This document shows positions 18,395-62,292 of a stretch of DNA of 64,000 nt, one piece after another. A model generated the notes under the pieces. The model was not told the DNA's origin, made no database searches, and saw only the letters and a list, made by a program, of their open reading frames with translations. Each line of letters opens with the position of its first letter. Within the stretch, counting starts at the first letter, position 1. The stretch is taken from positions 705 through 64,704 of the forward strand of contig JBAPOP010000007.1 in the NCBI GenBank assembly GCA_049279675.1, given 5' to 3'. Both the position numbers and the translations under genes were made by a program. The stretch is from Candidatus Acidiferrales bacterium. Lineage in GTDB: Bacteria; Acidobacteriota; Terriglobia; Acidiferrales; UBA7541.

Positions 18395-18759
18395 ATTCTG
18401 AACAATGGCGCGGCGAATCAACTCGCGTGACCCATATGTTCCCAAAATAAATTTGAGCTTCGCCAAATTAAATCACGCAATCCTTCCGCGCTTGATTAAG
18501 AGAATATGAATGTCACAAGGAACCCGCGCCACACGCAATTCGTCTCTTGTGCGCCAGGCACACTACCGCGACATCTCTCAAACTGTTTCCGCGCAAACTC
18601 CGATGTTCAGATGAGGATCAATACGGCCAGGGCAAAGATTCCCACTCGCATTCACGTTGTTCTGACCGCGCCAGCAGCAGGGTTAGCTTTGAAACATCCT
18701 GTGCTATGCTCGCCCGTCGTGGACCACAGGGACTTGCACGGTCGCGCCTTGTCCGGCGC

Positions 18760-18803
18760 TTGCAACGCAGCCCGAATTCTTGATACCATACCCCCATAGG
18801 GTA
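18760..18803 (+). promoter_or_regulatory. Putative promoter (TTGCAA-N18-TACCAT) overlapped by a CsoR/RcnR-type operator, TACCATACCCCCATAGGGTA
   Basis: The -35-like TTGCAA lies at 18760-18765 and the -10-like TACCAT at 18784-18789. The segment 18784-18803 contains a C5 tract flanked by the AT-rich inverted arms TACC/GGTA. That is the architecture of CsoR/RcnR-family operators. It ends 10 nt before the regulator's ATG. Confidence 0.45.
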
Positions 18804-18813
18804 GTCAACGAAA

Positions 18814-19080
18814 ATGTCTCAAACCAAACGTGAAAAATTGGATTTATTGAATCGCACCAAGAAAGTTGTCGGGCAACTCGAAGGCGTCGAGCGCGCCCTA
18901 AACGCCGATGAACCATGCGCTCATATTCTTCAGCGCCTCGCCGCGGCCAGGGGCGCCATCAACAGTTTGATGGGCGAGCTCATGGAGGATCATATCCGGA
19001 ACCATATGCCGCAAAATACCAAGACCTCCGAGGACGCGGCCGAAGACCTGATTGAAATCGTTCGATCGTACTTGAAGTGA
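18814..19080 (+). CDS. Metal-sensing transcriptional repressor, CsoR/RcnR/FrmR family (C35-H60-H64 fingerprint)
   Basis: This is an 88-aa ORF with ...GQLEGVERALNADEPCAHILQRLAAARGAINSLMGELMEDHIRNHM.... It is colinear with RcnR/CsoR helices. Confidence 0.85.
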   Translation: MSQTKREKLDLLNRTKKVVGQLEGVERALNADEPCAHILQRLAAARGAINSLMGELMEDHIRNHMPQNTKTSEDAAEDLIEIVRSYLK

Positions 19081-19276
19081 AATAAACGCGAATAGAGCCC
19101 GTTATCATGGAGTCCGACTAGGATCGCGCCTCACCAGGGGAATGCCGCAGTTTGGGGGCCCAGGCATCCAGATTGCCCCAATCCGTCATCTCTAGTAGTC
19201 TTTCCCATTCCATCAGGCTCTCGGTCCCACCCGTGACACAGCCAGATGAGGGCATTACGCCTAAGGAGCTGGAATT

Positions 19277-21640
19277 TTGAGAGGGAAGGCGTCACTTTCG
19301 ATTTGGATTCTGCTCGCGGCGGCGTTCTTTTTGCCGTCCTGCGGCGGCGTTGTGAATAACCCCGCTCCCTCTATCACTTCCATCTCCCCGACGAGTATCG
19401 ATGCTGGACAGCCCGGCTTCACACTAACCGTGAATGGCAGCGGGTTCGCTCCGCAATCGCTGATTTATTGGAACGGGAATGCCATCTCGACGATCTTCCT
19501 AACCGGAAACCAGCTCCAAGCCACAATTCCGTCTTCGTTCATCTCTACGCCCGGTAGTTCGATTATCGAAGTACAAACTCCCGCGCCAGGTGGGGGCATT
19601 ACAAGTCAGTTGACGTTTACCATCAATCCGGTCAGCAGCCCGATTCCGATCCTGAACTCGATCACGCCATCGTCTGCGCTGGCCGGGGGAAATCAATTCA
19701 TAATGCATCTCGTTGGTAACAACTTCGAGGCGCAATCGTCTGTCACAATCAACGGTAATGGCCAACAGACACAGTTTCTCGATAGCCAGGACTTGCAGGT
19801 GCAAATCCCTGCCACCGATCTGATTTCAGCCGGCACGCTTTCCGTGGCTGTGCTGAACCCTGCGCCCGGCGGGGGAACCTCGCAGACTCTTCCACTGACG
19901 ATCACTTATGCCGTGCCGGCCGTCACCATGCTCTCGCCAACAAGCGTGGCCGCCGGTGGAAATTCTCAAACTCTCACTGTGACCGGGACAGGAATGACGC
20001 CCGCGACGGTGATCACGTTTAACGGCAATCCGCGGACCACCAATTACACGTCGAACGTCTCGGTGACCGCCGATCTGACCGAGTCCGATCTTTTTACGGC
20101 GCAGATCGCGCAGATCGAAGCCGTAAATCCCTCTCCCGGCGGCGGGACATCCGTAGCTGTTCTCTTCGCAGTAGATGGAATCGTGCCGTCGCTGGCCAGG
20201 CCGGGCTATACCGGATTGCCGGAGTTGGTTGACTATAGCTATCTCGGACTCGCGCCAAATTCCGGCGTGGGCAACTTGAATCTCTCAGGTCCGTCGATCA
20301 ATTCGAACGGCCGCTACGTTGCGTACGCCTCCGCGGCGAGCAATCTCATTTTCAATGACACGAACGGCAACCCAGATGTGTTTCTCGAGGACACTTGTTT
20401 CGCTACGACGACGTGCGTCCCTTCCACGCAACTGGTCAGCATCTCCGGAACGGCCGGGAACGATGTCCCCGGCACGCAAGGAAATTCGGATAGTCTCGAG
20501 CCGTCGGTGAACTCGACGGGAGGATACATCGCGTTTTCCTCTCACGCGACCAATCTCGATCCGAATTACCCTACCCTCAGTGGCACCACGCGACAGGTTT
20601 TCCTCCGCGGCGCATGCATCGGCTCAACTTCCAGCACGAATTGCACCACCGGATTCACCGAGTTGGTTTCTGTCGCCGCGGATGGCGTGAATCCCGCGAA
20701 TGCCGACGCCACGCAGCCATCGGTTAGCACGGATGGCCGGTACGTTGCGTTTGTTTCGACGGCGACGAACCTGATTCCAGGCTTGAATCCCGGCGGAACG
20801 GCGCAGGTCTACCTGCGCGACACATGCCTGAGCACCACGTCGACGTGCACGCCGACGACGGAACTCATTTCTTCGCCTGATGGCGTCACGCCGGCTGACT
20901 CTCCCTCGTCGCAGCCATCGGTGGCCAGCGGCGGGCTTTATGTTTCATATACGACCGCGGCGTCGAATCTCATTAACGGCGTCGTTCCTTCATTCACGCA
21001 GATTTACCGCACGACGACTTGCATCTCTGGATTGGTCAATTGCGTTCCGGTAGTTACTCTCGTTTCCTCGAATGACGGCGTGACTCCGGCCAACGCGGCG
21101 AGTTCGGAATCCTCGATCACCAGCGATGGGCGCTACCTCGCCTTTGCATCCGCGGCGTCAAATCTTGTGCAAACGGCCTCATCTGGAGTCCAACAGATTT
21201 TTGTCCGCGATACTTGTGGCGCATTGATTGCCGGATGCACGGCGGCCACATCACTCGTTTCCATCGCCAACGACAACGTGACGCCCGGCAACGCGTTGAG
21301 CGAGGAGCCGACGATCAACTCGACGACTTCCGGCACCGGAGATGCGCAGTACATCGCGTTCTCGTCGTTATCAACGAACCTTACGACGAACACCACGAAC
21401 GGATTCGAAAATGCCTTCGTGCGCAACACCTGCGCCAATGCCACCGCGTCCCCGACGTGCACGCCCGGCACTGTGCTCCTCAGCACGTCGCAAAACGGCA
21501 CCCTTGCCAACAACGTTTCGCTGCATCCCGCCATCAGCGGAGATGGCCACACCGTGGCGTTCTTGTCACCGGCGACCAATCTCGTCTCGAACTACTCCAC
21601 GGGTCTCGGCGACGTCTTCCTTGTCTCGACGTCTTTTTAG
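19277..21640 (+). CDS. Lipoprotein with N-terminal IPT/TIG repeats and a C-terminal 7-repeat TolB/PD40-like beta-propeller
   Basis: This is a 787-aa ORF with a TTG start 9 nt after AAGGAG and the lipobox FFLPSCGG. It has three or four repeats of about 95 aa that end NP(A/S)PGGG(T/I)S. They are followed by seven repeats of the form GRYVAFxSxAxNL...VFxRDTC-x5-7-C. Confidence 0.75.
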   Translation: MRGKASLSIWILLAAAFFLPSCGGVVNNPAPSITSISPTSIDAGQPGFTLTVNGSGFAPQSLIYWNGNAISTIFLTGNQLQATIPSSFISTPGSSIIEVQTPAPGGGITSQLTFTINPVSSPIPILNSITPSSALAGGNQFIMHLVGNNFEAQSSVTINGNGQQTQFLDSQDLQVQIPATDLISAGTLSVAVLNPAPGGGTSQTLPLTITYAVPAVTMLSPTSVAAGGNSQTLTVTGTGMTPATVITFNGNPRTTNYTSNVSVTADLTESDLFTAQIAQIEAVNPSPGGGTSVAVLFAVDGIVPSLARPGYTGLPELVDYSYLGLAPNSGVGNLNLSGPSINSNGRYVAYASAASNLIFNDTNGNPDVFLEDTCFATTTCVPSTQLVSISGTAGNDVPGTQGNSDSLEPSVNSTGGYIAFSSHATNLDPNYPTLSGTTRQVFLRGACIGSTSSTNCTTGFTELVSVAADGVNPANADATQPSVSTDGRYVAFVSTATNLIPGLNPGGTAQVYLRDTCLSTTSTCTPTTELISSPDGVTPADSPSSQPSVASGGLYVSYTTAASNLINGVVPSFTQIYRTTTCISGLVNCVPVVTLVSSNDGVTPANAASSESSITSDGRYLAFASAASNLVQTASSGVQQIFVRDTCGALIAGCTAATSLVSIANDNVTPGNALSEEPTINSTTSGTGDAQYIAFSSLSTNLTTNTTNGFENAFVRNTCANATASPTCTPGTVLLSTSQNGTLANNVSLHPAISGDGHTVAFLSPATNLVSNYSTGLGDVFLVSTSF

Positions 21641-21667
21641 GAATCTATTTCCAGAGGATTCGAAGCT

Positions 21668-22564
21668 TTACGAGCGTGCGGCGGAGCGCTGCATGATAGC
21701 GCTGCGCGTCTTGCTTAGCGTGAAGGTAAGCGACTCTCGCGGGATGCTTTTGACGAAGGGTCCGACCATCCAGCCTAGCCCGGTCGGAATGTCGCGAGTC
21801 AACGAAATGGAGCGGCATTCCGCGTAGGTGCCGCCGTCTTTTTCCTGAAATCGCCAGTACGTCTGCATCCGCCAGAGGAAGCCGTTGTCGTCTCCGATGG
21901 GCTTCAGTTTCTCATCGCGAGTACCCGCGTTTTCGACTTCCTGTATTCGTGTCGTGTGCGAGCGGCTCGTCGCGCGCGTGGCGTCCAGCAATTGGTAGTG
22001 AACGTCGTGCTCGGTGTCGAGAATGGAAGTAACGACTTCCCGCCTGTAAAGACGGAAATAAACGACGAAATCGTTTCCGTCGCGGCTCAATATTTTTGAG
22101 GACACCACATCCGGCTGAAAAAACTTCTGATGTTCGTTGTAGTCTTCTTCGAACGAAAGCGTTTGCCGCAGCGTCGCGCCGGGAATGAAAACCGTCGCGA
22201 TCCAGTCGTGGACCAATCCATCCGGCACAGCAATCGACTTTCCGGCGTCCAGCGTCTCGAGCGGTTCGATGATCACCTCGCCGCGCCGCAAACGCTGGAG
22301 TGCTGCCGCGCGCTGGTCAACCGGGAGACGATCGATCCAAAGGAACGCCGCTTGATTCGCGTCGAGCCCATCCATTTTTATTTCCGAGAGTTGTACGTAA
22401 TGCCCGAAAGCGTCCACGGTCTGCGATTTCAGGCGCGCGGCGTTCGTGGGTTCCGGACTCATGAGTGCCGCCAGAACCAGGACGATGGAGGCGATTCCCG
22501 CCACCTGCCGTCGATTCCTGCGGGTGACAGATTTGCTCGCCTTTGAATTGCGCTTCATTTCCAT
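21668..22564 (-). CDS. Hypothetical exported or membrane-anchored protein
   Basis: The track ORF is 21668..22699. The likely start is at 22564 (MEMKRNSKASKSVTRRNRRQVAGIASIVLVLAALMS), giving a signal anchor. I recognise no motif in it. Confidence 0.4.
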   Translation of the reverse strand: MEMKRNSKASKSVTRRNRRQVAGIASIVLVLAALMSPEPTNAARLKSQTVDAFGHYVQLSEIKMDGLDANQAAFLWIDRLPVDQRAAALQRLRRGEVIIEPLETLDAGKSIAVPDGLVHDWIATVFIPGATLRQTLSFEEDYNEHQKFFQPDVVSSKILSRDGNDFVVYFRLYRREVVTSILDTEHDVHYQLLDATRATSRSHTTRIQEVENAGTRDEKLKPIGDDNGFLWRMQTYWRFQEKDGGTYAECRSISLTRDIPTGLGWMVGPFVKSIPRESLTFTLSKTRSAIMQRSAARS

Positions 22565-48499: not shown

Positions 48500-49849
<1,350 letters not shown>

Positions 49850-49927
49850 GGGCCGAGGTTCCTGGTGGATCGAAAGTCGAAGCGAACGGCAAGGAGACAG
49901 TCAAATCAGCGATTACAAAGTGGCTCA

Positions 49928-50014
49928 TTTTGTTACGATTAGAAATGGGCTCGGCCGTTTGTTTTGTGTGAGTTACGTCGATTTCTAATCGTTTTGGTGT
50001 CACGATTAGAAAGG
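49928..50014 (+). repeat. Composite repeat unit A (arm / inverted arm / arm: CGATTAGAAAT ... ATTTCTAATCG ... CGATTAGAAA)
   Basis: The arms lie at 49936-49946, 49981-49991 (inverted) and 50003-50012. By eye, unit A is about 75-80% identical to unit B. Confidence 0.7.
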
Positions 50015-50145
50015 AAGTGAAAAGCGACCGGTTCGCCCCCGCGAGCGGCCTCATCGCAGGCAAGTCGCGAGCGACGAGCGAAAGTCCGGCCCGCCTCCCG
50101 GCGAGCCCTACAGTTGCACCCCTTATCCAGTCCGGAGCTGTAGTG

Positions 50146-50233
50146 TTTGTGTCCCGGTTAGGAAGGGACTCGGTGTTTTGTTTTGAAGGAGTTACGGTGA
50201 TTTCTAATTGTTTTGGTGTCCCGGTTAGAAATG
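50146..50233 (+). repeat. Composite repeat unit B (CGGTTAGGAAG ... ATTTCTAA ... CGGTTAGAAAT)
   Basis: It aligns with unit A over the core TTTGT..GTTAG(A/G)AA.GG.CTCGG..TTTGTTTTG...GAGTTACG..GATTTCTAAT.GTTTTGGTGTC.CG.TTAGAAA. It lies 218 nt downstream of unit A. Confidence 0.7.
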
Positions 50234-50286
50234 TGGAGACACGTGGGGAGTGACTTATGATAGGGGGCCTGCTTTGCGTCTGGCAA

Positions 50287-50383
50287 ATGTAGCTCACCTC
50301 TTTAGAGGTGAGGCATTTCGTCTCGTTTCCGCCGGGTAATGCGGGCACGGCAAAAGCCTCGGGTCTGAAGACCCGAGCTACAT
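50287..50383 (+). other. 97-nt multi-hairpin (cloverleaf-like) element, candidate structured RNA or REP/BIME-like module; strand undetermined
   Basis: The closing stem pairs ATGTAG (50287-92) with CTACAT (50378-83). The internal perfect hairpins are CTCACCTC-ttta-GAGGTGAG (50293-50312) and CTCGGGTC-tgaa-GACCCGAG (50358-50377). A weaker central CCGC...GCGG hairpin lies between them. Confidence 0.45.
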
Positions 50384-50682
50384 TACGAGGCGCGTGGCCG
50401 AGATCGACGTTGTTGAGCGTAATTGTCACTCATTCACGGATAACATGCCGCGCCGGGAGATACAAGGGGTGGGGTCTGTGGACTTTCGGCGCTTGCTGAG
50501 CCTTTGACTTTGCTGGGAACTCGCTCGAACAAACTTTTGCCGTAGCTACGCGCACAGCTCGGCGAGAGACGAAAACCAGAGGACATTCGAGCGGTGGTGT
50601 ACAACCGGATATTGTAGTTGCAGGCGATCTGTTATACGGTGCAAGCAGTCCACCGCGGGAATTCACGAAGGCGAAATTCGCT

Positions 50683-53121
50683 GTGAAGCCGAAATTTTTC
50701 GCGCTGCCGGTTGCCGCCGCATTCTCGATCCTCTGTGCTGCGGCATTTGCAGGCGGCTCTTTGGCTACGAGCCATACCTCGGCTACGAACCGATCCTCGG
50801 CCACGAACCGTTTTTCGCAACAGTCGAGCCAAACGCGAGGCGTTGCGCCCGAGCAAGAGACGAAGGCGCAAGTCGCGTCTGAATTGAGCGGCCACTTTTT
50901 CGCGCTCGTCATCGGCATCAACAATTACGAGCATTTGCCGAAGCTCGCCACCGCCGTGCAGGATGCGCAGGCGCTCGCTTCGATTCTTCGCGATCAGTAT
51001 GGGTTTCAAACAACACCTCTATTCAATGCGACGCACGACCAGATCATGAAGGCGATGAACGACTACCGTCACAGCCTCGACGAAAATGCGAGCCTTCTGA
51101 TTTATTACGCCGGCCACGGCTATTACGACAAAGATGCCGACAAGGCGTATTGGCTGCCCGTGGATGCTGACCGCGACGACAATTCGCACTGGATCATGGC
51201 AGAGTCCATTACAACCGCGGCGAAAGTGATTCCGGCGCGACATGTCCTGATCGTTTCTGATAGTTGCTATTCCGGCGGCCTGACGCGCGACATAGCGCTC
51301 TCATACACCGCAGAGGAGCGCGAGCGGTTCCTCGCAAAGATGGCTTTCGGGAAGTCGCGCACTCTGATGTCGAGCGGCGCGCTCGAACCGGTCGCAGATG
51401 GGGGCGGCGGCGGACATTCGGTGTTTACGGGCGCATTGATCAAGGCACTCGCCACTTCCAGCGACACTATTTTCTCGGCGGAAGGACTTTTCGATCAGTA
51501 TGTTCAAGTGTCTGTCTCTGGCAGATCCGATCAGACTCCGCAATACGCTCCGATCCGAAATTCCGGACACGACTTCGGCGACTTCGTGTTTGTGCGATCG
51601 GGCAAGGCGTCTGCGCCCAGCGCAGCGCAGAAAGCGGCGAACAACCAGGCGCCGGCACCTCAGACTGTGGCTTCGCAGCCGGCGCCAGCCCGGCAGCCGG
51701 CCGCGCCGCCTCGCCCAGCGTACAATCCGCCGGCTGCGGCGCCGATTGAAATGCCTACTAACAAGGTATCGGCAAACCAGACGTTCGGAGGAATTCGCTT
51801 CGAAGTGAAGAGCGTCAACACCAACGACAGCAAAGCTCCGATCGTTCTGATTGCAGCGACGAATACAGAACAGCGCGATATCAAGTTCAAGCTCCTGTTT
51901 CCGCTGGAACCGAAAGTGATCGACAGTAACGGGATCGCGAGCAATTGGTATGGCGTTGACGGCGTTCCGATCTGCAATGCGTACGGCAACATCACAGTAA
52001 ACTGTGCCACGCCGGATCCGACCCGCTGGTCAGTGGCACATTCGGGCGCTCCATTGAACTTCGCACTGAAATTCCGTGGCCCTCAAGATTTTCACGGATC
52101 GAGCGCGAGTGTTTCCTTTAACGTATTACTTGGCACCGAAAAGGATGACGGAACCATAAAATCGGTGATGATCCCTGTCGTTCTTCCCAACGTGCTGCTT
52201 AAGCCTGACGCGCCCGTTCGGCCTGCGTTGGCCAATCGAGTTTATGAGGAGATCCATTTTGACGTGACGAGCGTCCGAACCGGCGACAAGGCCGTAAGCT
52301 TTCTCGTCGCCGCGACGAACACGCAACAGCGCGACTCGAGGTTCAAGATATTGGTGCCGCTGGAACCGAAAGTGATCGACAGCAACGGGGTCGCGAGCAA
52401 TTGGTATGGCGTTGACGGCGTTCCGATCTGCAATGCCTACGGCAATATCACGGCAAACTGCGCGAAGCCCGAACCTAACCTATGGTCGGAGGCCTATTCG
52501 AGTATTCCATTGAATTTCGTGCTGAACTTCCGTGGCCTTCAGGATTTTCGCGGCTCTAGCGCGAGCGTTTCCTTCAACGTGTTGCTCGGCACCGAAAAGG
52601 ATGATGGAACCGTACGGCCGACAATGATCCCGGTTGTTTTGCCGAACGTTCCGCTCAATCCCGATGCGCCCGTTCGGCCGAGGTTGGCCAGCCAGGCGTA
52701 TGAAGGCATTCGATTTGACGTCGTGGCCGCCCAGGCGGGCGAGAAAGCAATTCGCGTTCTAGTCGCGGCGACAAATACGCAGCAGCGGGATTTGAGGTTC
52801 AAGATATTGGTGCCGCCGGATCCGAAAGTGATCGACAGCAACGGGGTCGCGAGCAATGGGTATGGCGTCGACGGCGTTCAGAATTGCAATGCCTACGGCA
52901 ATATCGCGGCAAACTGCGCGAAGCCCGAACCGAACCTCTGGTCGGAGACGTATTCGGGCATTCCGTTGAACCTCGTCCTGAACTTCCGTGGCCCTCAGGA
53001 TTTTCGCGGGTCGAGCGTCAATATTTCTTTTGACGCACTACTCGGCACCGAAAAAGATGACGGGAGCATAAAAACCACAGTGATCCATGTTGCCTTGCCA
53101 AACGTTCCCGTCACCCAATGA
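50683..53121 (+). CDS. Exported caspase-family (peptidase C14) protein fused to three tandem ~152-aa Cys-pair modules of unknown fold
   Basis: This is an 812-aa ORF with a GTG start and the signal peptide MKPKFFALPVAAAFSILCAAAFA. The caspase His lies in LLIYYAGHG (codon 51115) and the Cys in LIVSDSCYSGG (codon 51265). A P/A-rich linker is followed by the 3x repeat. Confidence 0.85.
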   Translation: MKPKFFALPVAAAFSILCAAAFAGGSLATSHTSATNRSSATNRFSQQSSQTRGVAPEQETKAQVASELSGHFFALVIGINNYEHLPKLATAVQDAQALASILRDQYGFQTTPLFNATHDQIMKAMNDYRHSLDENASLLIYYAGHGYYDKDADKAYWLPVDADRDDNSHWIMAESITTAAKVIPARHVLIVSDSCYSGGLTRDIALSYTAEERERFLAKMAFGKSRTLMSSGALEPVADGGGGGHSVFTGALIKALATSSDTIFSAEGLFDQYVQVSVSGRSDQTPQYAPIRNSGHDFGDFVFVRSGKASAPSAAQKAANNQAPAPQTVASQPAPARQPAAPPRPAYNPPAAAPIEMPTNKVSANQTFGGIRFEVKSVNTNDSKAPIVLIAATNTEQRDIKFKLLFPLEPKVIDSNGIASNWYGVDGVPICNAYGNITVNCATPDPTRWSVAHSGAPLNFALKFRGPQDFHGSSASVSFNVLLGTEKDDGTIKSVMIPVVLPNVLLKPDAPVRPALANRVYEEIHFDVTSVRTGDKAVSFLVAATNTQQRDSRFKILVPLEPKVIDSNGVASNWYGVDGVPICNAYGNITANCAKPEPNLWSEAYSSIPLNFVLNFRGLQDFRGSSASVSFNVLLGTEKDDGTVRPTMIPVVLPNVPLNPDAPVRPRLASQAYEGIRFDVVAAQAGEKAIRVLVAATNTQQRDLRFKILVPPDPKVIDSNGVASNGYGVDGVQNCNAYGNIAANCAKPEPNLWSETYSGIPLNLVLNFRGPQDFRGSSVNISFDALLGTEKDDGSIKTTVIHVALPNVPVTQ
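51787..53118 (+). repeat. In-frame tandem repeat, 456-nt period, about 2.9 copies (51787, 52243, 52699)
   Basis: Each copy encodes ...(I/E)(R/H)F(E/D)V...LVAATNTQQRD.(R/K)FK(I/L)LVP.(E/D)PKVIDSNG(V/I)ASN.YGVDGV..CNAYGNI..NCA.P.P..WS....PLN..L.FRG.QDF.GSS..(V/I)SF..LLGTEKDDG.... Long stretches of nucleotide near-identity link the copies. Confidence 0.9.
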
Positions 53122-53232
53122 TGTGACAGGTGGGGGAGCCACGCCGTGGCGGATCTTCGCATGAGTCCCAAGCGTGCAACGGACCGCGCGACTTTTTCCT
53201 TCAACAAGACAAACGGTGTGCATTGACCTGCA

Positions 53233-53260
53233 TTGACATGACGAGAGATCGGGTTACATT
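53233..53260 (+). promoter_or_regulatory. Sigma-70-like promoter TTGACA-N16-TACATT upstream of the TPR-CHAT gene
   Basis: TTGACA lies at 53233-53238 and TACATT at 53255-53260. The start codon follows about 33 nt later. A direct repeat of GCATTGAC overlaps the -35 element. Confidence 0.4.
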
Positions 53261-53292
53261 GTGGCGAGAGTCTCTTCGGACCACGCGCGGCG

Positions 53293-56200
53293 ATGATGAT
53301 TCCCGCTCCCACTATCCTTCGCGGTCCTTCGGGCGCTAGGAAATTGCAAAGACTAAAAAAGACTCGCGCCGCTTTTAGCGGATTGCTTGCCGTGGGTGTC
53401 GCGATGATGTTGATCATGGCGCTTGGCTTGCCGGTTAGGGCGCAGGAGGGGCGGTGGGCTGAGCTGGTGAAGAGGGCGAATGCGCTGCGAGGAGAGGGCA
53501 AGTATGCAGAGGGGATACCGGTTGCGGAAGAGGCGGTGCGAGTGGCGGAGAAGTCAATTGGAGCGAAAAGCCCGGCGCTGGCGATGAGTTTGAATTTGCT
53601 TGGGGCGATGTATGACGACGAGGGGAAATATGCGGAGGCGGAGCCGGTCTTTCAGCGCAGCTTGACGATCCGCGAGACGGCATTGGGGCCGGACAATCCT
53701 GAAGTGGCGAAGAGTTTGAATAGCTTGGCGTTTCTTTATTATCACGAAGGCAGGTATGCGGAGGCGGAGCCGCTTTTCAGGCGCGCGCTGGCGATTCGCG
53801 AGAACGCGCTCGGGCCGGACAATGCGGAAGTGGCCGTCACGCTGAATACGCTTGCGTCGCTGTATCAGAGGCAGGGGGAATTTGCAAAGGCGGAGCCGCT
53901 CTTCAAGCGCAGTCTGGCAATCCGCGAAAAAATTCTCAAGCCGGACGATCCTGAATTGGCGCGGAGCCTTGGGAGCGTCGCGACGCTGTATCAGGAGCAG
54001 GGGAAATATGCGGAGGCGGAGCCGCTGCTTAGGCGCGCGCTGGCAATTCGCGAAAAGGCGCTCGGGCCGGAGCATCCCGACGTGGCGGCGAGCCTGAACA
54101 TTCTGGCGCTCGTGTGCGAGCAGCAGGGCAAATATGCCGAAGCGGAGCCACTTTACAAACGCAGCTTGGCGATACGCGAGAAGGCGCTTGGGCCCGACCA
54201 TCCCGACGTGGCGAGGAGCCTCAGCAGCCTCGCGACGCTGTATCAGAAGCAGGGGAAATATTCCGAGGCGGAGGCGCTATTCAAGCGCAGCTTGGCGATT
54301 CGTGAAAAGGCGCTTGGCCCCGACCATCCTGATGTCGCGTCGAGCCTGAACAATCTCGCGCACGTTGACGAAAATCAGGGCAAGTACGCCGAAGCGGAGC
54401 CGCTCTACAAGCGGAGCCTGGCGATCCGCGAAAAGGCGCTTGGCGCGGACCATCCGGATGTGGCCGCGAGCCAGAGCAACCTCGCGACGCTTTATTACGC
54501 CGAAGGCAACTACGCGCAGGCGGAAGCTTACTTCGAGCCCGCGCTTAAAAATATTTCGAAGCAATTCGAGAACAACTTCACGTACATGAGCGACAAGGAC
54601 CGGCTGGAATTTCTGCACACGGTGCAGCCGACATTCGACGCGTATTTGAGTTTCTGCCTGACGCAGCGCGAGCGAGATTCGAATCTTGCGGGCGGGATGT
54701 ACGACTTGCTGCTGTGGGAGAAGGGGCTCGTCGGAACGAGTGTGGCGGCGTTGCGAGCGCAGGTGGCCGACGGCGGCGACGCGCAGGCGCTCAACATTTT
54801 TGACCGGCTGGCGGCGAAGAAAAGCGAATCGGCGCGGCTTGCGAGCACGCGGCCCGAGGGCTGGGAGCAATCGCGGAAACAAATTGATGACGAAGCGAAC
54901 GAGCTCGAACAGCAATTGGCGCGGCGGGTGAGCTCGATTGGCGAACAGAAAAATGCGGCTCACGCCGGTTGGCGCGACGTGCAGAAGGCGCTGGGGCCGC
55001 GCGAGGCTTCCGTGGAATTCGTCCGTTTCCATTTCAATGACGGGAAACATTGGACGAGGGCATTCGAGTACGCCGCGTTGATTGTGACGGCGCAGAGCGA
55101 GGCTGGGCCGGCACTGATCTCGCTCGGCGATGCGAAAGAGCTCGAGGGTGATCCACTGCGCGACTATCGCTTGCGCGTGGGACTTCGAGCGAATGGCACG
55201 GCGAGAGGCGTCGCGGCTGTGGAGAAAAATGAAAATGGCGGCGCGGCGCCGAAGGTGAGTTTTTTCGATGCGTTTTGGAAGCCACTCGAGCCTGCGCTGA
55301 AGGGCGTCGAGCGAATATATCTTTCGCCTGATGGCGCGCTCAATCAAGTGGCGCTGGGAGATGTTGCTGGGAGCGACGGGCGATTGTTGATCGAGAAATA
55401 CGATTTGCGAATCGTTTCGAGCACGAAGGATATTTTGCGCGGACCGCGGAAAACTTCTACGAACGATAGTTCGGTGCTGGTCGGGAATCCTGCGTTTGAT
55501 TTGGATGAAGCGCAGGAGCGGGCGGCGCTCGAATCTTTGCACGCCGCGCCGGCGGCGGCCGATGCTGCTCCGGAGGCTCAAGAAATCGTGAGTTTGCGAT
55601 CGCGCGAACTTGAAAGCGGGAAGCTCGATCCTCTGCCCGGGACGCAGATTGAGGTGGAAGAGATCGCGAAGCTGCTCGAGAAGCAGCGATGGCAGGCGCA
55701 GATCTACACACGGGAGCACGCGCTGAAAGAAGCGGTAATGGAAGTGAAAGGGCCGCGCGTGCTGCATCTCGCGACGCACGGATTTTTTGAGGCTGACCAA
55801 AAAACAGATCAGCGTGAAAACGACGAGAGCTCAGCGAGTGAACAGCCAGCGAGCGTGGAAGATCCGATGCTGCGTTCGGGACTGTTTTTTGCAGGAGCGA
55901 ATCGCAGACTTTCCGGGCACGCGACACCGGCCGATTTGGACGATGGCGTGTTAACGGCTTATGAAGCGAGTCAACTCAACTTGCAGGGGACCGAGTTGGT
56001 GGTGCTGAGCGCGTGCGAGACGGGGCTCGGCGAAGTGGCGGCGGGCGAAGGAGTGTTCGGACTGCGACGCGCGCTGCAAGTGGCAGGCGCTGATTCCGTG
56101 CTCATGAGCATGTGGGCTGTGCCGGACAAGGAGACGCAGGAATTGATGGTGCTTTTTTACGAGAAGTGGCTATCCGGAAAAGACAAGCCTGAGGCGCTGC

Positions 56201-56295
56201 GGGAAGCGCAATTGGAAATGCGAGCGCGGGTGAAGGCGCGCTACGGAGAAGATCGGCCGCAATATTGGGGTGCGTTCGTGATTGTGGGGCGGTGA
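53293..56295 (+). CDS. Signal-anchored TPR (9 x 42-aa, TPR_12/KLC-like) + CHAT-domain (caspase-fold) protein
   Basis: This is a 1000-aa ORF. Its N-terminus RKLQRLKKTRAAFSGLLAVGVAMMLIMALGLPVRA-QE looks like a signal peptide or anchor. The TPR repeats have the form LNxLAxLYxxQGKYAEAEPLxKRSLAIREKALGPDHPDVAxS. The CHAT dyad is LHLATHGFF (His codon 55777) and LVVLSACETGLG (Cys codon 56014). Confidence 0.88.
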   Translation: MMIPAPTILRGPSGARKLQRLKKTRAAFSGLLAVGVAMMLIMALGLPVRAQEGRWAELVKRANALRGEGKYAEGIPVAEEAVRVAEKSIGAKSPALAMSLNLLGAMYDDEGKYAEAEPVFQRSLTIRETALGPDNPEVAKSLNSLAFLYYHEGRYAEAEPLFRRALAIRENALGPDNAEVAVTLNTLASLYQRQGEFAKAEPLFKRSLAIREKILKPDDPELARSLGSVATLYQEQGKYAEAEPLLRRALAIREKALGPEHPDVAASLNILALVCEQQGKYAEAEPLYKRSLAIREKALGPDHPDVARSLSSLATLYQKQGKYSEAEALFKRSLAIREKALGPDHPDVASSLNNLAHVDENQGKYAEAEPLYKRSLAIREKALGADHPDVAASQSNLATLYYAEGNYAQAEAYFEPALKNISKQFENNFTYMSDKDRLEFLHTVQPTFDAYLSFCLTQRERDSNLAGGMYDLLLWEKGLVGTSVAALRAQVADGGDAQALNIFDRLAAKKSESARLASTRPEGWEQSRKQIDDEANELEQQLARRVSSIGEQKNAAHAGWRDVQKALGPREASVEFVRFHFNDGKHWTRAFEYAALIVTAQSEAGPALISLGDAKELEGDPLRDYRLRVGLRANGTARGVAAVEKNENGGAAPKVSFFDAFWKPLEPALKGVERIYLSPDGALNQVALGDVAGSDGRLLIEKYDLRIVSSTKDILRGPRKTSTNDSSVLVGNPAFDLDEAQERAALESLHAAPAAADAAPEAQEIVSLRSRELESGKLDPLPGTQIEVEEIAKLLEKQRWQAQIYTREHALKEAVMEVKGPRVLHLATHGFFEADQKTDQRENDESSASEQPASVEDPMLRSGLFFAGANRRLSGHATPADLDDGVLTAYEASQLNLQGTELVVLSACETGLGEVAAGEGVFGLRRALQVAGADSVLMSMWAVPDKETQELMVLFYEKWLSGKDKPEALREAQLEMRARVKARYGEDRPQYWGAFVIVGR
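53455..54565 (+). repeat. Nine tandem 126-nt (42-codon) TPR-encoding units
   Basis: Nucleotide strings such as GCGGAGGCGGAGCCGCT...AAGCGCAGCTTGGCGAT(C/T)CG(C/T)GA(G/A)AAGGCGCTTGG recur at a 126-nt period. Confidence 0.8.
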
Positions 56296-56370
56296 GGCGT
56301 CGATGCAAAGGCGCTCTTCTTGCTGCGCGAGAATGGGGCAAATTTTGGGTTCGGTAACCGCACGAAAAAA

Positions 56371-56395
56371 CGCCGGCAAGATGCCGGCGCTACGA
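56371..56395 (-). terminator. Rho-independent terminator of the caspase-pentapeptide gene; also a member of the hairpin+CTAC repeat family
   Basis: The minus strand reads CGCCGGCA-tct-TGCCGGCG followed by TTTTTT (56370-56365). It lies 55 nt after the stop at 56445. Confidence 0.7.
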
Positions 56396-56444
56396 TGGCA
56401 TGGGAATCGCCGCGAAAAATAAAGCGCAGACACACAATCGCAAA

Positions 56445-58403
56445 CTAAGGGTGGGATGGGTTGGCGCGTGCTTTGGCGTCTTGGAGCTCTTTCGAATGAG
56501 CTTTTATGCGCGATCGAACATCTTCGCCGCGCTTGTCGATGAACGACTGCGGAAAGGCGAGGCCGAATTCATCCACCGTGAGCTCTTTTCCATTGGCGTC
56601 GAAAATCGGATACCACCAATCTTCGTTTAGCTCGCGCTTCTTGCACGCTGGCAGCCCTGCGTCCTTCAGGCTGAGGAAGAAAGTTGATTCGATGTAGCGG
56701 TTGTGTTCGATGCCGCCGGAGAAGCGATCGCTGGGAATTTCGTCAATGATGAGGACTGAGAAATCGGTGCGCGAGACGGGCGTCTCACAGGCGCCTGGCT
56801 TCTGGAGCTTGTCGAAACTTTTCAGATCGATGATTGCAGCGGTGAAATCGGTGTTGGCGATTTTGGCGTCTTTGAATGTGGCGCCGGTGAGATCGGAGCC
56901 GACAAAGAATGCGCCAGTGAGATCGGCTTTGTCGAAAATTGCGTTGCGTAGATCGGCGAACATGAAGCGGGCGCCGCTCAAATTCGCGCCGGTGAAATTC
57001 GCGCCCTGGGCGCCCGCGCTGAACCATCGAATTCCCGCGGCCTTGGAATCCTGAAATTGGGCGCGCTCGGCATCGGCGAAATCGAACTTGGCTCGCTCAA
57101 GCGTCGCTCCGCGAAAATTTGTGCCGTTCAGAATCGCGAAGGAGAAGCTTGCGTCGGTGAAATCGGCGGAGGAGGCTGAAGCGTGAGTCAGATCGGCATC
57201 GGCAAACGCCGTCTTGTTAAAGTCACCGGAATCGAAGTGCCCATTTCGAAGCGAGAGGCCTGAAAGTTTTAGGCCGCCGAGGGAATGCTGCGTGCGGATC
57301 ATGCTCTCGACGGCGAGAACTTGTCCGATGTCGCCCGTCGGCATGATGTCTGAGGCGCGCTGGAGAACTGAGAGCGCGCTCTCGAGCGACATTGTTTCAG
57401 TTGCGGGCTGATCGTGGCGCGAATTCGTAGGCGAAGCGGCCGATGCTGAATCAGGATTGGGCGCGGGCGGCGCGCTGCCTGGTGCTGAGACGGCCGATGG
57501 AGCTGCCGCCGGCCAGCCAGCAATCTTTCCGTGGCGCGCAAAAACGAAGTCGCCGGAATTGTGCCCGGAGCTGTGAAGGGGCATGTACTGCGGAGTCTGG
57601 TCGGAGCCGCCGCCGACGGAAATCTTGATATATTGTTCGAACAGATTGTCCGCGGAAAACATATTATCCGTTTCAGCTGTGAGACCTTTGATCAGCGCGG
57701 CGGCGAAAACAGAATGGCCGGAACCGCCCGAATCGGAAACGGGCTCGTCGCCGCCGCTGGACATCAGCGTGCGGGAATGACCTTCCATCATTTTTTCAAG
57801 ATAGGTCTGCAGGTTTTGCGATGAGAAGGATAAATCCACGTCGCGCATTTCGCCCGAGTAACAACTATCGGAAACAATCAGGACGTGGCGCGCGGGGATG
57901 ACCTTTATGTCAGTGGTGATTTCTTCGGAGATAATCCAGGTCGCGCTATTTTCCCGCTGCGCGTCCACGGGCATCCAATACGCGTGGTCGCCGTATTTGA
58001 CGCCGTGCCCCGCGTAGTAGACGAGGAGATTTGCGGAATCGTCGAGTTCGTGGCTGTATTCGCTAAGAGCGGTGAGAATTTCGAATTTGGAGGCGTTCAA
58101 TAAAACTTTCGTCTTGAAGCCATAATCGTTTTGCAGAATCGCGGCGATTGACTGAGCGTCGCCGACGGCGGTGTGCAACGGCGGAAGATTTTTGTAATCG
58201 TTGATTCCGATCACGAGGGCAAAATAGGCAGCTGGTTGCGCGGATGATTTCGAAGTTTCCGGTTGAACGGGAGTGACGCTGCGTTGATCTTTTTGTGTTT
58301 GTTGCGGATGAACAAGCGAAGCACCGCCGGCCGCCAGCGCCAGAACGACGCTGGACACTAGTAACGCGGAAAGAGCGGTGACCGCTCGGGATTTGAATTC
58401 CAT
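56445..58403 (-). CDS. Exported caspase-family (peptidase C14) protein fused to pentapeptide repeats and an unknown C-terminal domain
   Basis: This is a 652-aa ORF with the signal peptide MEFKSRAVTALSALLVSSVVLALAAGGA. The caspase dyad is LLVYYAGHG (His133) and LIVSDSCYSGE (Cys181, codon 57863-57861). Pentapeptide repeats (A(D/N)LxG-type) span aa ~378-525 (56829-57272). A 127-aa C-terminal domain is uncharacterised. Confidence 0.85.
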   Translation of the reverse strand: MEFKSRAVTALSALLVSSVVLALAAGGASLVHPQQTQKDQRSVTPVQPETSKSSAQPAAYFALVIGINDYKNLPPLHTAVGDAQSIAAILQNDYGFKTKVLLNASKFEILTALSEYSHELDDSANLLVYYAGHGVKYGDHAYWMPVDAQRENSATWIISEEITTDIKVIPARHVLIVSDSCYSGEMRDVDLSFSSQNLQTYLEKMMEGHSRTLMSSGGDEPVSDSGGSGHSVFAAALIKGLTAETDNMFSADNLFEQYIKISVGGGSDQTPQYMPLHSSGHNSGDFVFARHGKIAGWPAAAPSAVSAPGSAPPAPNPDSASAASPTNSRHDQPATETMSLESALSVLQRASDIMPTGDIGQVLAVESMIRTQHSLGGLKLSGLSLRNGHFDSGDFNKTAFADADLTHASASSADFTDASFSFAILNGTNFRGATLERAKFDFADAERAQFQDSKAAGIRWFSAGAQGANFTGANLSGARFMFADLRNAIFDKADLTGAFFVGSDLTGATFKDAKIANTDFTAAIIDLKSFDKLQKPGACETPVSRTDFSVLIIDEIPSDRFSGGIEHNRYIESTFFLSLKDAGLPACKKRELNEDWWYPIFDANGKELTVDEFGLAFPQSFIDKRGEDVRSRIKAHSKELQDAKARANPSHP

Positions 58404-58481
58404 GCGATGTCACACGGCTGTTGGAGCCTGTTCCACGTACTGTAGACCTTCCGGCAGGTCAAAACAAGAACGCGGCGCGGA

Positions 58482-59786
58482 TCACTTGGCGTAATCGTTC
58501 TTCACGACGGCGCCGCCTTTCATCACGAACTTTACGTGCTGCAGCGTAGTGACGTCCTGCAACGGATCGCCGTCAACGGCGATAATGTCGGCCCACTTGC
58601 CGGTGTCGAGGGTGCCGATTTTGTCGCTCCAGCCGAGCAGATCGGCGTCGTTGATGGTTGCGGTCTGAATGGCTTGGAGCGGCGTCATTCCCAGGCTCAC
58701 GTAGACGGCGAGCTCGTGGGCATTCAATCCGTGCGGATACACCGCGGCATCGGTGCCCATGCCGATTTTCACTCCGGCCGCGATCGCTTTTCGAATGTTC
58801 CCCTTCGCCATCTCGGAAACCATCGCCATCTTTTTCTGCGAGAATTCTGGCAAATTCGCTCGAGCGGCGTTTTCGCGTTGCCAATCGATGAGATAGAGCG
58901 TGGGAACGAGATAGGTGCCGTTCTTTTTCAGCGTGGCGATCGCTTCATCGTTCATCAGGTGGCCGTGCTCGATTGAGTCAACACCGGCTTCGGACGCCCA
59001 GATCACGCCTTGCGCGCCGTGTGCGTGAGCGGCAACTTTCCTGCCCAGCCTGTGAGCGTCGGCTACGATCGCTTTCATTTCTTCGAGCGTGTACTGAGCC
59101 GCGTTCGGATCGTCGCCTTTGGAGAGGACGCCACCGGTCGCGCAGATTTTGATGACGTCCGCGCCGTACTTGATAATTTCGCGCGTTTTGTGCTGAACAT
59201 TTTCGACGCCGTCGGCTGCGCCTTCGCTTGTAGCGTGATATTCGAAGGGCAAGAAGTCGTTATCGCAATGGCCGCCCGTGATGCTGAGCGGGGGACCGCT
59301 CACGAGCATGCGCGGGCCGGGCACGTCTCCAGCATTAATGGCGTCGCGGAGGGCTACGTCGCTATAGCCGTGCGCGCCGACGTTGCGGACGGTGGTGATT
59401 CCAGCTTCCAAAGTGACGCGAGCGTTGCGGGCGCCGATCAGAGCCTCGCGAGGAATAGAAATCGCCAAGGTTTCGTAACCGAAACTTGGGTTGAAGGTCA
59501 GATGCGTGTGCGCATCGATGAGTCCGGGGAGAACTGTCGCGTGCGAGAGATCAATTACAGTGTCGCTGGGAGAAGTTTTGAGATCATCGGCAGCGACGAC
59601 GCTCACTATTTTGTCTCCTTCGATCACAATCGCTCTGTTCGCGAGCGTGTTGCCGCTCTTCACGTCAAGCAAATGGCCGGCCTTGACGATTACGCGGTTC
59701 GACGACTGCTGCGCCGCGACAGCCGCGCACAACATCAGCATCGCGGCGACAAGTCCTGGCAGCAAACTTCTGAGAGATATTTTCAT
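58482..59786 (-). CDS. Exported amidohydrolase-family metallo-hydrolase
   Basis: This is a 434-aa ORF with a signal peptide. It carries [11 protein letters not shown] (the HxH metal motif), a later AAHAHG motif and ...GTDA.... Confidence 0.85.
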
Positions 59787-59991
59787 GGCGTCCTCTTTGT
59801 CGTTTCGATAAGAACCTTTGAGCTGCGCGAGGCACTATATCAGCCCTAACGGGCGTTCGCGCTTCGTTCGTTTTATGGCTCTTATCGCGGCGTGGACGGA
59901 ACCGTTGCGGGTCACGGTGAAGGCGACTACAATTCGTGGCCGGGCGGTGAATCGCGGGTGATTGAGAGCGGGAGATCGAGGAGGAATTACG

Positions 59992-60597
59992 ATGAAAAAG
60001 GCAAGTTTGCTCGTGCTGGCAGTTTTGTGTTTTCAGGCGCTCGTGTTTGCGCAGAGCCTGGCGCCCGCGGACCGCGCAAGCGGCGTGAAATTTCTTGAGA
60101 CGACGCGGGATGGCGTTGTGGAAGCGACGAAGGGGCTATCGGAAGCCCAATGGAAATTCAAGGCGGGGCCGGACCGCTGGTCGGTGGCCGAGACGCTCGA
60201 GCACATCGCACTGGCCGAGGATTATATTTTCGGAATTACGAGTGAGAAAGTTATGAAAGCGCCTGCCGGAGCCCCGGACCGCGACTACAAGAAGGTTGAT
60301 GCCATGGTTCTTGCGATGATTCCCGATCGCTCGCACAAAGCGCAGGCGCCGCCACCGCTCGTCCCGACGGGACGCTGGACACCCGCGGAAACCCTCGATC
60401 ATTTTTTGAAGAGCCGCGCGAAGACGATTGAATACATGAGGACGACGCCCGATTTGCGCGAGCATGTGGTGACGGAGGATCCGCTCAACCAGCCGATGGA
60501 CGGGTATGAATTCCTGCTGTTTATTGGCGCGCATAGTGAGCGGCATACGAAGCAGATTTTAGAAGTGAAGGCTGATCCGAATTTTCCGAAGATGTAG
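59992..60597 (+). CDS. DinB-family protein with a Sec signal peptide
   Basis: The ATG at 59992 follows GAGGAG and lies inside track ORF 59962..60597. It translates as MKKASLLVLAVLCFQALVFA-QS. It contains ...RWSVAETLEHIALAEDY...FIGAHSERHTKQI. Confidence 0.75.
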   Translation: MKKASLLVLAVLCFQALVFAQSLAPADRASGVKFLETTRDGVVEATKGLSEAQWKFKAGPDRWSVAETLEHIALAEDYIFGITSEKVMKAPAGAPDRDYKKVDAMVLAMIPDRSHKAQAPPPLVPTGRWTPAETLDHFLKSRAKTIEYMRTTPDLREHVVTEDPLNQPMDGYEFLLFIGAHSERHTKQILEVKADPNFPKM

Positions 60598-60637
60598 AAA
60601 TTGTCGAGTGATGGCAGTCGGAAAAAAGGCGAAGAGT

Positions 60638-60662
60638 GCCCGGCTGAAGCCGGGCGCTACAA
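60638..60662 (+). repeat. Hairpin+CTAC repeat: GCCCGGC-tgaa-GCCGGGC-GCTACAA
   Basis: It is 23/25 identical to 62055-62079 and in the same orientation. The two copies bracket gene 60720..62012. Confidence 0.7.
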
Positions 60663-60719
60663 GTGCCACTTCGGAGATTTTGCCAATGTTAGCGGCGATC
60701 TAGCCGCGAAGGGTGATCG

Positions 60720-62012
60720 TCAATTTCGGCCCGGTGCAGCTAGGTCGTGCGACGGCGTTGGATCGGGAATTAGGACGACAAATTCGTAGCCGAAAATCGT
60801 GCGCTCGAGTTCCGGATCCACCTTGCCGTACTTGCCGAAGTGATCGCGAAGGACGCGAAGATCGTAGAGCGTCCATGAATCCGCGAGCATGTTGTCGAAG
60901 AGCGGCTTGAAATATTTGAAACCGGAATCGGGATCGCCGGCAAGATCGACCGGCGCTTCGCCGCTCGGCTTTCCGATTCCGGCGAACTGCAACTCCTTGC
61001 CTTTGACCCCGAGAATAAAGATGTGGACCGATTTTTGTCCGCGCCCTTCCGCCAATTCCGCAACGTAATTGCCAAGTTCGCTTGAGTGCAGCGGATTCAA
61101 GCCGCGGTACATGTGATTTCCGCCAAATTTGAAGAAAACCCTCGGTGCCACGCCATCGCGCCGCTCCGCTTCCGAATAATCCCGTACGAAATTTGATTTC
61201 ATCAACTCGGCGCGCTCGCGGTTCGATGCATAACCAGAAGCGGACATAAATTTTTGATAGATATCGCGGCTCTTGAGCAAAGATTCCATCAACGAAATAT
61301 TGTGGTGGGCCATCGGTCCGCTCTGATTTTTGAGTAGCGCGAGAAATTGATCGAGTTCGGCCTGGGGCGCTTTCATCAGAAACAGTTCGCTTGGATCGCC
61401 ACTTTTTGCGGATACTGCATAGTCCTGTCGATTTTCTTCGAGTAGTCTTTCTGCAGCGGCGCGTGTTTCCGGAGTCGTGGCTCCGCGAACGAGAAGATCC
61501 AAAACGTAGCTCGGGGCTCCCATCAATTCCTGATCGAGGCCCCAGAGGTGCATTCCCGCAGGAGCTCCGCTTTTTTCGCATTGCTGCAAGAGAGAAAATT
61601 CCTCGCGCCAATTGTAGAACGCGATGCCAGCCGGATAGCGCTTCTCGAAGTCCGCGAGCTTGCTCAATCCATCGGGATCGCGCGCGAATCGCTCGATTTC
61701 CGGCGTGAGAATCGGACCGGTTTCAATCGCCATATTATGAAAGCCGCGCGGCGCAAGCTCTGCGCAAAGCGCGCCGGCGAACTGCGGAATCTGCGCGATG
61801 CCATGATCTTCACCGAGGAGAACGAACTGCGCATCGGCCGTGGCGGCGCGCAGGACGTCCGCGCCGGGACCGACGAGAGTGTAGTCCTTTACCGAAATTG
61901 CCGAGCGGCCGCTCTTGAGGGCGTCGGTGAGAGATGCTTCCTGCGACTGCGAAAACGCGGGCGTGGCGCAGAAGAGCATCAGAATGAGCGTGAACTTGAG
62001 CGAGCGGGTCAT
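60720..62012 (-). CDS. Exported protein, tentatively Tiki/ChaN/erythromycin-esterase superfamily-like
   Basis: The track ORF is 60720..62099. The likely ATG at 62012 gives the signal peptide MTRSLKFTLILMLFCATPAFS-QS. The motif FVLLGEDHGIAQIP resembles the GxxH metal motif of that superfamily, from memory only. Confidence 0.4.
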   Translation of the reverse strand: MTRSLKFTLILMLFCATPAFSQSQEASLTDALKSGRSAISVKDYTLVGPGADVLRAATADAQFVLLGEDHGIAQIPQFAGALCAELAPRGFHNMAIETGPILTPEIERFARDPDGLSKLADFEKRYPAGIAFYNWREEFSLLQQCEKSGAPAGMHLWGLDQELMGAPSYVLDLLVRGATTPETRAAAERLLEENRQDYAVSAKSGDPSELFLMKAPQAELDQFLALLKNQSGPMAHHNISLMESLLKSRDIYQKFMSASGYASNRERAELMKSNFVRDYSEAERRDGVAPRVFFKFGGNHMYRGLNPLHSSELGNYVAELAEGRGQKSVHIFILGVKGKELQFAGIGKPSGEAPVDLAGDPDSGFKYFKPLFDNMLADSWTLYDLRVLRDHFGKYGKVDPELERTIFGYEFVVLIPDPTPSHDLAAPGRN

Positions 62013-62054
62013 CTTGAAATCTCCGTTTCGTGTTTGCCGCTGGCAGGAACGGCT

Positions 62055-62079
62055 GCCCGGCTTAAGCCGGGCGCTACAA
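62055..62079 (+). repeat. Hairpin+CTAC repeat: GCCCGGC-ttaa-GCCGGGC-GCTACAA
   Basis: See 60638-60662. It lies in the 5' flank of gene 60720..62012. Confidence 0.7.
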
Positions 62080-62292
62080 TTGCTGTTTATTTCCAGCACC
62101 GCAGTATGTACGTGTTGCGCTGCGGCAAAGTTCAGGCGCTGCCGCCCCGGAAATCGAAAGCCGCATGATAACCGCGTTTGGTACCGAACTCGATGCTCAC
62201 CGAAGCCGTTGCCGCAGCGTCTCTAGAGTAGAAGCGCGTATCTCGCGGCGGGCAAGAACGTCGATAGCGCGCACGGCGAGTATAGTGATCCC

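Follow-up and report, generated by a model that had tools for sequence, protein, structure and literature searches.

Three adjacent caspase-fold protease genes with export-type N-termini in a variable locus of a Candidatus Acidiferrales genome

Caspase-fold cysteine peptidases (clan CD) have been described from several prokaryotic settings, with which we compare three adjacent genes, designated A, B and C, of a Candidatus Acidiferrales bacterium (GenBank assembly GCA_049279675.1, contig JBAPOP010000007.1, positions 705 to 64,704; this stretch of 64,000 nucleotides (nt) is called the window). The window also corresponds to part of a 2.4-Mb metagenome-assembled contig (ENA ERZ25039484, contig_14896). 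Genes A and C encode proteins with a peptidase C14 (caspase) domain, which is followed in A by three copies of an unannotated module and in C by pentapeptide repeats, and gene B encodes a protein of tetratricopeptide repeats (TPR) followed by a CHAT domain. Judged by sequence, all three belong to the caspase fold (clan CD) and have an intact His-Cys dyad, and on balance they probably encode independent, separately transcribed, exported cysteine peptidases that share a variable locus.

For A and C, the comparison is with the prokaryotic metacaspases and orthocaspases, which likewise have the PF00656 dyad, an N-terminal hydrophobic segment and C-terminal interaction domains (Asplund-Samuelsson et al. 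2012, PMC3501461). N-terminal transmembrane (TM) helices or likely signal peptides, extracellular domains, and fusions to FGE-sulfatase and TPR domains have been recorded among them, as have pentapeptide fusions in Cyanobacteria, to which such fusions were specific in that survey, whereas C is acidobacterial (PMC3501461). A differs from the surveyed proteins in that its C-terminal module lies outside Pfam. The paracaspase MALT1 is unlike A and C in being a eukaryotic cytoplasmic signalling protease with death and immunoglobulin (Ig) domains.

For B, there is a periplasmic TPR-CHAT precedent in DdvA of Myxococcus xanthus, which has a structure determined by cryo-electron microscopy and a canonical dyad (PMC11506125). 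DdvA resembles B in the order of its parts, a TPR solenoid and then a CHAT domain with a His-Cys dyad, in being extracytoplasmic, and in having no CRISPR effector bound. Unlike DdvA, B has no cytoplasmic zinc-binding anti-sigma domain (ZASD), there being only about 25 residues ahead of its hydrophobic segment, and no adjacent gene for an extracytoplasmic function (ECF) sigma factor is present in the window; B was rejected as a DdvA-type anti-sigma factor on these two grounds, and by comparison with DdvA it is probably a cleaved soluble or an anchored periplasmic protein. Csx29 of the type III-E craspase has the same order of TPR and CHAT and a His-Cys dyad, but the craspase is cytoplasmic, is bound to gRAMP/Cas7-11 and has its gene beside cas genes and a CRISPR array, whereas B has a predicted signal peptide. 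No Cas gene (gRAMP/Cas7-11 included) and no NTPase gene was found among the genes called within 10 kb on either side of the trio, nor any CRISPR-like array in the 64-kb window, and B was rejected as a craspase accordingly.

The NTP-dependent conflict systems of Kaur et al. (2020, PMC7159879) draw on the same effector superfamilies as the trio and on TPR adaptors, but they are centred on STAND or other NTPases and are cytoplasmic, whereas the trio has export-type N-termini and no NTPase within 10 kb. Searches with Pfam and NCBIfam found no NTPase domain in A, B or C, and an NTPase-centred caspase/CHAT conflict system was rejected, as no NTPase is either fused to the three proteins or encoded among their called neighbours. 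An initial annotation of this DNA, made from the sequence alone, had reported the lack of a Cas gene, a CRISPR array and a STAND/NACHT ATPase, and in this it was borne out.

Domains, active sites and N-termini

Open reading frames (ORFs) and Pfam searches agree with the initial annotation on the three adjacent genes, their positions (Table 1) and their C14, TPR-CHAT and C14-pentapeptide content. PF00656 (Peptidase_C14) matches A at amino acids (aa) 73-288 (E 5.6e-22, 79.0 bits against a cutoff of 21.4) and also C (E 2.6e-23, 83.3 bits against the same cutoff), PF12770 (CHAT) matches B over profile positions 8-289 of 289 (E 2.2e-67, 228 bits against a cutoff of 24), and PF00805 (Pentapeptide) matches C (E 2.4e-21, 75.4 bits against a cutoff of 20.2) in tandem units of the type A(D/N)LXX. 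Three 152-aa modules in A and about 30 pentapeptides in C had been counted before, and both figures stand (about 31 pentapeptide units are in register at aa 376-530), whereas the nine TPRs attributed to B are eight TPR_10 units according to Pfam. A family search with the 120-aa C-terminal domain of C gave no match. Two of the genes already carry names at NCBI: A is MFZ0908007.1, 'caspase family protein' (Candidatus Acidiferrales), and B is MFZ0908008.1, 'CHAT domain-containing tetratricopeptide repeat protein'. Inside A, just past the signal peptide, an 18-nt tandem repeat of 2.7 copies (50763-50810) encodes the low-complexity sequence SATNR(S/F)S.

The six dyad positions given in the initial annotation are exactly the catalytic His and Cys codons of A, B and C. 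His145 and Cys195 of A are invariant across 38 aligned members of the A/C subfamily, as are His829 and Cys908 of B in 10 CHAT relatives. A profile of the A/C family compared with the PDB was matched best by the MALT1 paracaspase (E 7e-11), and also by yeast metacaspase-1, AtMC4 and GSU0716; the alignment with MALT1 runs from the first beta-strands to the catalytic His (ALLIG...YYAGHGY), superposing YYAGHG on the catalytic-His motif of MALT1, and, being local, stops before the Cys, which in A and C falls within the Pfam-matched C14 region. For the non-TPR part of B, sequence and profile searches of PDB chains gave no real match; an AlphaFold2 model of the CHAT domain, made from a 10-sequence alignment, had a low predicted local distance difference test (pLDDT) score of 40.7; and an hhalign comparison of the CHAT and C14 families placed His on His in the sole alignment returned, which was not significant (E 0.35). 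In the metacaspase motif DSCHSG, it is the Asp that lines the S1 pocket, which accepts basic residues. We take the D-S-C of A and C to resemble that motif, and it would presumably confer cleavage specificity for Arg or Lys as in metacaspases, and all three proteins are presumed to be proteolytically active.

The N-termini of A, B and C each consist of a basic n-region, a hydrophobic h-region and a small-x-small site, with cleavage predicted between AFA and GG in A, between VRA and QE in B, and between ALA and AG or between GGA and SL in C. A simple heuristic of hydropathy plus charge, applied to N-termini, flagged all three proteins but not Ffh, ribonucleotide reductase, the aminoacyl-tRNA synthetases or other cytoplasmic proteins encoded in the window, and the n-h-c pattern is conserved in both families, in keeping with the Sec-type N-termini first proposed for the trio. 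A signal-like N-terminus was found in 103 of 120 A-family proteins and in 55 of 77 full-length B-family proteins, and most of the failures are truncated start calls, with the mature N-terminus AQ(E/Q)GRW still kept. An extracytoplasmic site is further indicated for A, because its module follows a TM helix in TIR-TM proteins (described below) and carries two invariant Cys residues. From the N-terminal heuristic and the architectures together we infer that all three proteins are exported, and we regard this as well supported.

The three proteins fall into two families, both of them greatly expanded in Acidobacteriota and already publicly annotated. Scoring 8,000 candidates with A yielded 1,464 that pass E<=1e-5, and with the non-TPR part of B 4,586 candidates pass, many of them at more than 50% identity. 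The A/C subfamily, for which GTDB species genomes yielded more than 595 loci spread over Acidobacteriota, Desulfobacterota, Nitrospirota and Proteobacteria, follows a plan of constant signal peptide, C14 domain and Pro/Ala linker with a highly variable C-terminus, the fusion partners of C14 being TPR, FGE-sulfatase, pentapeptide, Ser/Thr kinase, PEGA, trypsin-like and glucodextranase-N domains and several unannotated repeat domains. The C14 domains of A and C had been taken for close paralogs of roughly 80% nucleotide identity in the active-site region; this figure is reached only over about 55 nt around the Cys, whereas identity is 65% over the whole domain and 55% between the two proteins. 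Because 70 proteins from other genomes are closer to the C14 domain of C than A is, A and C are neither close nor recent paralogs, and a recent inverted duplication of A into C was rejected in view of these identities and the many closer foreign proteins.

The C-terminal half of A has no match in Pfam, and NCBIfam matched only the caspase region of the protein. Its three repeats of 456 nt (152 aa) are 79-82% identical in nucleotide sequence, and each has two invariant Cys residues. The AlphaFold2 model of the module (pLDDT 85.7) is an Ig-like beta-sandwich, for which Foldseek found only generic Ig-like beta-sandwiches in the PDB (GAE/appendage, MSP and pilin domains, TM-scores of 0.4-0.5) and no specific structural relative there. 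The module is extremely rare, being represented by 16 clusters among 1.84 billion proteins, and is present in 1 to 3 copies among relatives of A. Outside this family, five proteins (P0011, P0242, P0244, P0246 and P0248) carry it after a cytoplasmic TIR domain and a single TM helix, and in others (P0249, P0251-P0253 and P0255) it is fused behind a FlgO/LpoB-like envelope domain. As the ectodomain of TIR-TM proteins it has a receptor-like design and is a candidate envelope sensor domain, and the sharing of a rare, unannotated Ig-like module by an exported caspase and TIR-TM proteins is one of two modestly new observations made here, the other concerning the gene neighbours of distant B relatives (below).

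Gene neighbourhoods among relatives

A three-gene sensor/protease module or cascade had been proposed, and the comparison of gene neighbourhoods, set beforehand as the test that could refute it, found homologues of the three genes scattered without conserved linkage. On the caspase side, the best 80 of the more than 595 C14-subfamily loci were surveyed, with up to 10 kb of flanking sequence per side (1.17 Mb of flanks in total), by scanning with hidden Markov models (HMMs) built in this analysis. A CHAT gene was present within 10 kb in 2 of these 80 species-level loci (L028 and L051), even at E<=10, and a second C14 gene in about 8; the middle region of the B family was found in none of the flanks. 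The 58%-identical C homologue P0093 and the TIR-module protein P0011 both have unrelated gene contexts with no caspase or CHAT neighbours.

Among close relatives of the window's genome (those with Ffh 95-99% identical), B lies beside the ffh operon in every case and is the sole member of the trio fixed there. The order is ffh operon, A, B, sedolisin and MacB in L002-L005; ffh, A with two modules, B, a group of anti-sigma, ECF sigma, metallophosphoesterase and cupredoxin genes, amidohydrolase and DinB in L087 and L095; and ffh, A with an apparent N-terminal frameshift, and B in L088 and L089. A is absent from L090, L092 and L102, which have ffh, B and DinB, and from L091, which has two unrelated small genes between ffh and B. 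C was found only in the window's own genome among the close relatives compared, and the whole stretch between B and the MacB-like gene is variable. The relatives that lack A carry the most diverged B, and A is present where B is closest to that of the window, so that a single gain of A explains the pattern. Judging from this comparison, B appears as the resident gene, A as a lineage-restricted insertion and C as a private insertion. The proposal of a three-gene cascade thus gave way to a picture in which conservation is limited to B, with A variable and C private; the accompanying statement that the genes could not be assigned to a described system was fair, with the simpler reason that they are not one system.

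Two of these relatives deserve separate description. In L091, the ffh-B slot (7247-8641, reverse strand) is filled by unrelated genes of 231 and 214 aa, which marks the slot as a hotspot of gene exchange. In L088 and L089 (5986-8573), two overlapping frames share the A orthologue (88% identical), the break falling near residue 75-90 and detaching the signal peptide from what follows; this may be a frameshift, a pseudogene, or an assembly error common to two samples from the same site.

Under the explanation favoured here, that of three independent peptidases, each protein would be exported by Sec to the periplasm or cell envelope and would act as a stand-alone regulated endopeptidase, the non-catalytic domain picking the ligand or substrate. 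We infer that recognition would be by tandem disulfide-bonded Ig-like modules in A, by a TPR solenoid in B, as in separase, craspase and DdvA, and by a pentapeptide beta-helix in C. The adjacency of the three genes would be historical rather than functional, A and C having been inserted on either side of the resident B at a locus whose gene content changes by gain and loss from one close relative to another.

Several observations weigh against this explanation. At least four distinct relatives have A and B next to each other in the same direction, with about 170-210 nt between them, which could reflect a real pairing in a subclade. Caspase and CHAT genes do cluster elsewhere: L006 has such a cluster at 9397-22556, L051 holds two CHAT and two C14 genes, and in L104 a B-like gene is followed after 157 nt by a gene encoding a signal peptide, a C14 domain and a TonB_C domain (SP-C14-TonB_C), which is a periplasmic design. 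Only five independent loci make up the sample of distant B-family neighbourhoods, the case for export is drawn from a heuristic and from the logic of architectures, and no member of the A/C or B family has a reported activity or substrate. In L006 itself, the A homologue (69% identical) adjoins a transposase fragment, and the island includes genes for WD40-C14 (973 aa), C14 (799 aa) and CHAT (573 aa) proteins.

Intergenic elements and flanking genes

The features of the locus are collected in Table 1. Three separate transcription units are plausible for A, B and C, because a promoter-like site precedes B, a terminator-like hairpin follows C, and C is convergent with B; the first of these elements suggests that B may have its own promoter.

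Table 1. Features of the protease locus in the window, and TonB_C-domain neighbours of distant B-family genes (positions are those of the window unless a locus is named)
Feature	Position	Strand	Description and basis
Repeat-rich ffh-A intergenic region	49928..50384	.	Outside the protease genes; repeat comparison
Gene A	50683..53121	+	812 aa; intact ORF, Pfam domain search
Gene A, parts in order			Sec signal peptide aa 1-23 (predicted cut after AFA), C14, Pro/Ala-rich linker, three 152-aa beta-sandwich modules
C14 domain of A	50860..51612	+	Pfam; subfamily HMM built in this analysis, 424 bits
Dyad of A	His145 codon 51115, Cys195 codon 51265	+	
Three tandem 152-aa modules of A	51757-52212, 52213-52668, 52669-53118	+	Repeat comparison
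Promoter-like site	53233..53260	+	TTGACA, 16-nt spacer, TACATT; 10/12 consensus matches; in the 171-nt A-B gap
Gene B	53293..56295	+	1000 aa; intact ORF, Pfam domain search
Gene B, parts in order			Signal peptide/anchor (h-region aa 26-46, VRA/QE site aa 50), about eight 42-aa TPR units, helical middle region, CHAT
CHAT domain of B	55225..56292	+	Pfam PF12770
Dyad of B	His829 codon 55777, Cys908 codon 56014	+	
Terminator-like hairpin	56369..56391	-	10 pairs, 7 G-C, then T-run; downstream of C in the convergent B/C gap
Gene C	56445..58403	-	652 aa; intact ORF, Pfam domain search
Gene C, parts in order			Signal peptide, C14 (57519-58262), low-complexity linker, about 31 pentapeptide repeats (56814-57278), 120-aa C-terminal domain
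Dyad of C	His codon 58007, Cys codon 57863	-	
TonB-like protein	L103 11389-12132	-	
SP-C14-TonB_C	L104 11160-12350	+	
Ser/Thr kinase-TM-TonB_C	L106 11049-12455	+	

Between ffh and A, a pair of 85-nt direct repeats (at 49928-50012 and at 50147-50231), both of which contain a TTCTAATCG/CGATTAGAA hairpin, is accompanied by a 33-nt inverted repeat (50286-50384). This intergenic region folds better than shuffled sequence (z -3.4). Its 33-nt core motif is present at only two sites in the window. An Rfam scan of positions 49700-58600 gave no family above threshold, the one sub-threshold match being to Acido-Lenti-1 at 50358-50395 (19.6 bits against a gathering score of 37). A similar ffh-A intergenic sequence appears, from similar ORF translation, to be present in L091, a relative without A. 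On the other side of the trio, beyond C (58482-62099), are genes for an amidohydrolase, a DinB_2-family protein and a protein of 430-459 aa without family match, all exported-looking by the N-terminal test or by eye.

Competing explanations and implications

Foremost among the alternatives, and in our view unlikely though not far-fetched, is that A and B form a lineage-restricted periplasmic pair, in which the Ig-like modules would sense an envelope or extracellular ligand and one protease would then process or activate the other; the pair would be one case of a habit of the B family, whose partner would be an adjacent envelope protein with a periplasmic binding domain. Adjacency, orientation and gap are indeed kept in L002-L005, L087/L095 and L088/L089, and the receptor-like use of the A module in TIR-TM proteins also speaks for the pair. 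Against it, L090, L091, L092 and L102 have an intact, syntenic B but no A, and the presence of A where B is closest to that of the window is explained by a single insertion; A is apparently frameshifted at its N-terminus in two of the relatives that retain the arrangement, its module varies in copy number, a promoter-like site stands ahead of B, and the TIR-module protein P0011 has no CHAT neighbour. The wider habit is suggested by distant relatives of B: of 5 independent distant B-family loci, 3 have a gene for a protein bearing the periplasmic TonB_C domain immediately next to the TPR-CHAT gene (Table 1), and a TonB_C HMM had no match in the 1.17 Mb flanking C14 loci, a control that is biased in that the HMM was built from the same three neighbours. 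This adjacency is a lead rather than a result, and may reflect a recurrent partnership.

Taken further, the lead would have each B-family periplasmic TPR-CHAT protease work with the envelope protein encoded beside it, the partners being exemplified by SP-C14-Ig-module here and by SP-C14-TonB_C and kinase-TM-TonB_C elsewhere, and such pairs would constitute a class of extracytoplasmic proteolytic signalling modules of Acidobacteriota not described so far. We consider this generalization doubtful; if it were true, a swappable periplasmic binding domain would recruit the CHAT protease, loosely like the self-cleavage proposed for DdvA.

It is more improbable still that the trio is an extracytoplasmic defence or conflict island, whose exported caspase-like proteases would detect molecules of phages or competitors at the envelope. 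In favour of such an island, conflict systems typically make use of caspase, CHAT and TIR domains, the A module is common to TIR proteins, the slots flanking B vary in content as they do in defence hotspots (that of L091 being occupied by two unrelated genes), and the periplasmic TPR-CHAT protein DdvA controls a CBASS/CRISPR island (PMC11506125). Set against these points, PADLOC returned only generic 'caspase' and 'TPR' matches, and the model of EACC1-associated caspases (NF047832) scored 80.3 and 73.9 bits, below its cutoff of 140. A CHAT profile found one distant locus only in 2.9 million viral contigs, neither an ECF sigma factor or ZASD domain nor an effector, toxin or NTPase was found with the trio, and the other genes of the slots encode ordinary exported hydrolases (sedolisin, amidohydrolase, metallophosphoesterase).

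That the hydrophobic N-termini are not export signals and the three proteins are cytoplasmic caspase-like effectors, with an NTPase or sensor encoded elsewhere, would fit the cytoplasmic nature of the caspase/CHAT conflict systems described so far (PMC7159879) but is highly improbable given the conserved n-h-c organisation of both families, the five proteins in which a TM helix separates the A module from a cytoplasmic TIR domain, the conserved Cys pair of the module, the fusion of related C14 proteins to periplasmic TonB_C, and the absence of an NTPase within 10 kb in any locus examined.

Genes A, B and C can thus already be named as members of known families, and a conserved three-gene system is not supported. 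The locus is a caution against reading a system into neighbouring genes that share a superfamily, above all in phyla in which the families concerned are hugely expanded. The tendency of distant TPR-CHAT relatives of B to have genes for TonB_C-domain proteins beside them is testable at scale. The size of the A and B families, most members of which have N-termini of signal-peptide type, points to a substantial pool of uncharacterised periplasmic caspase-fold proteases in soil Acidobacteriota.

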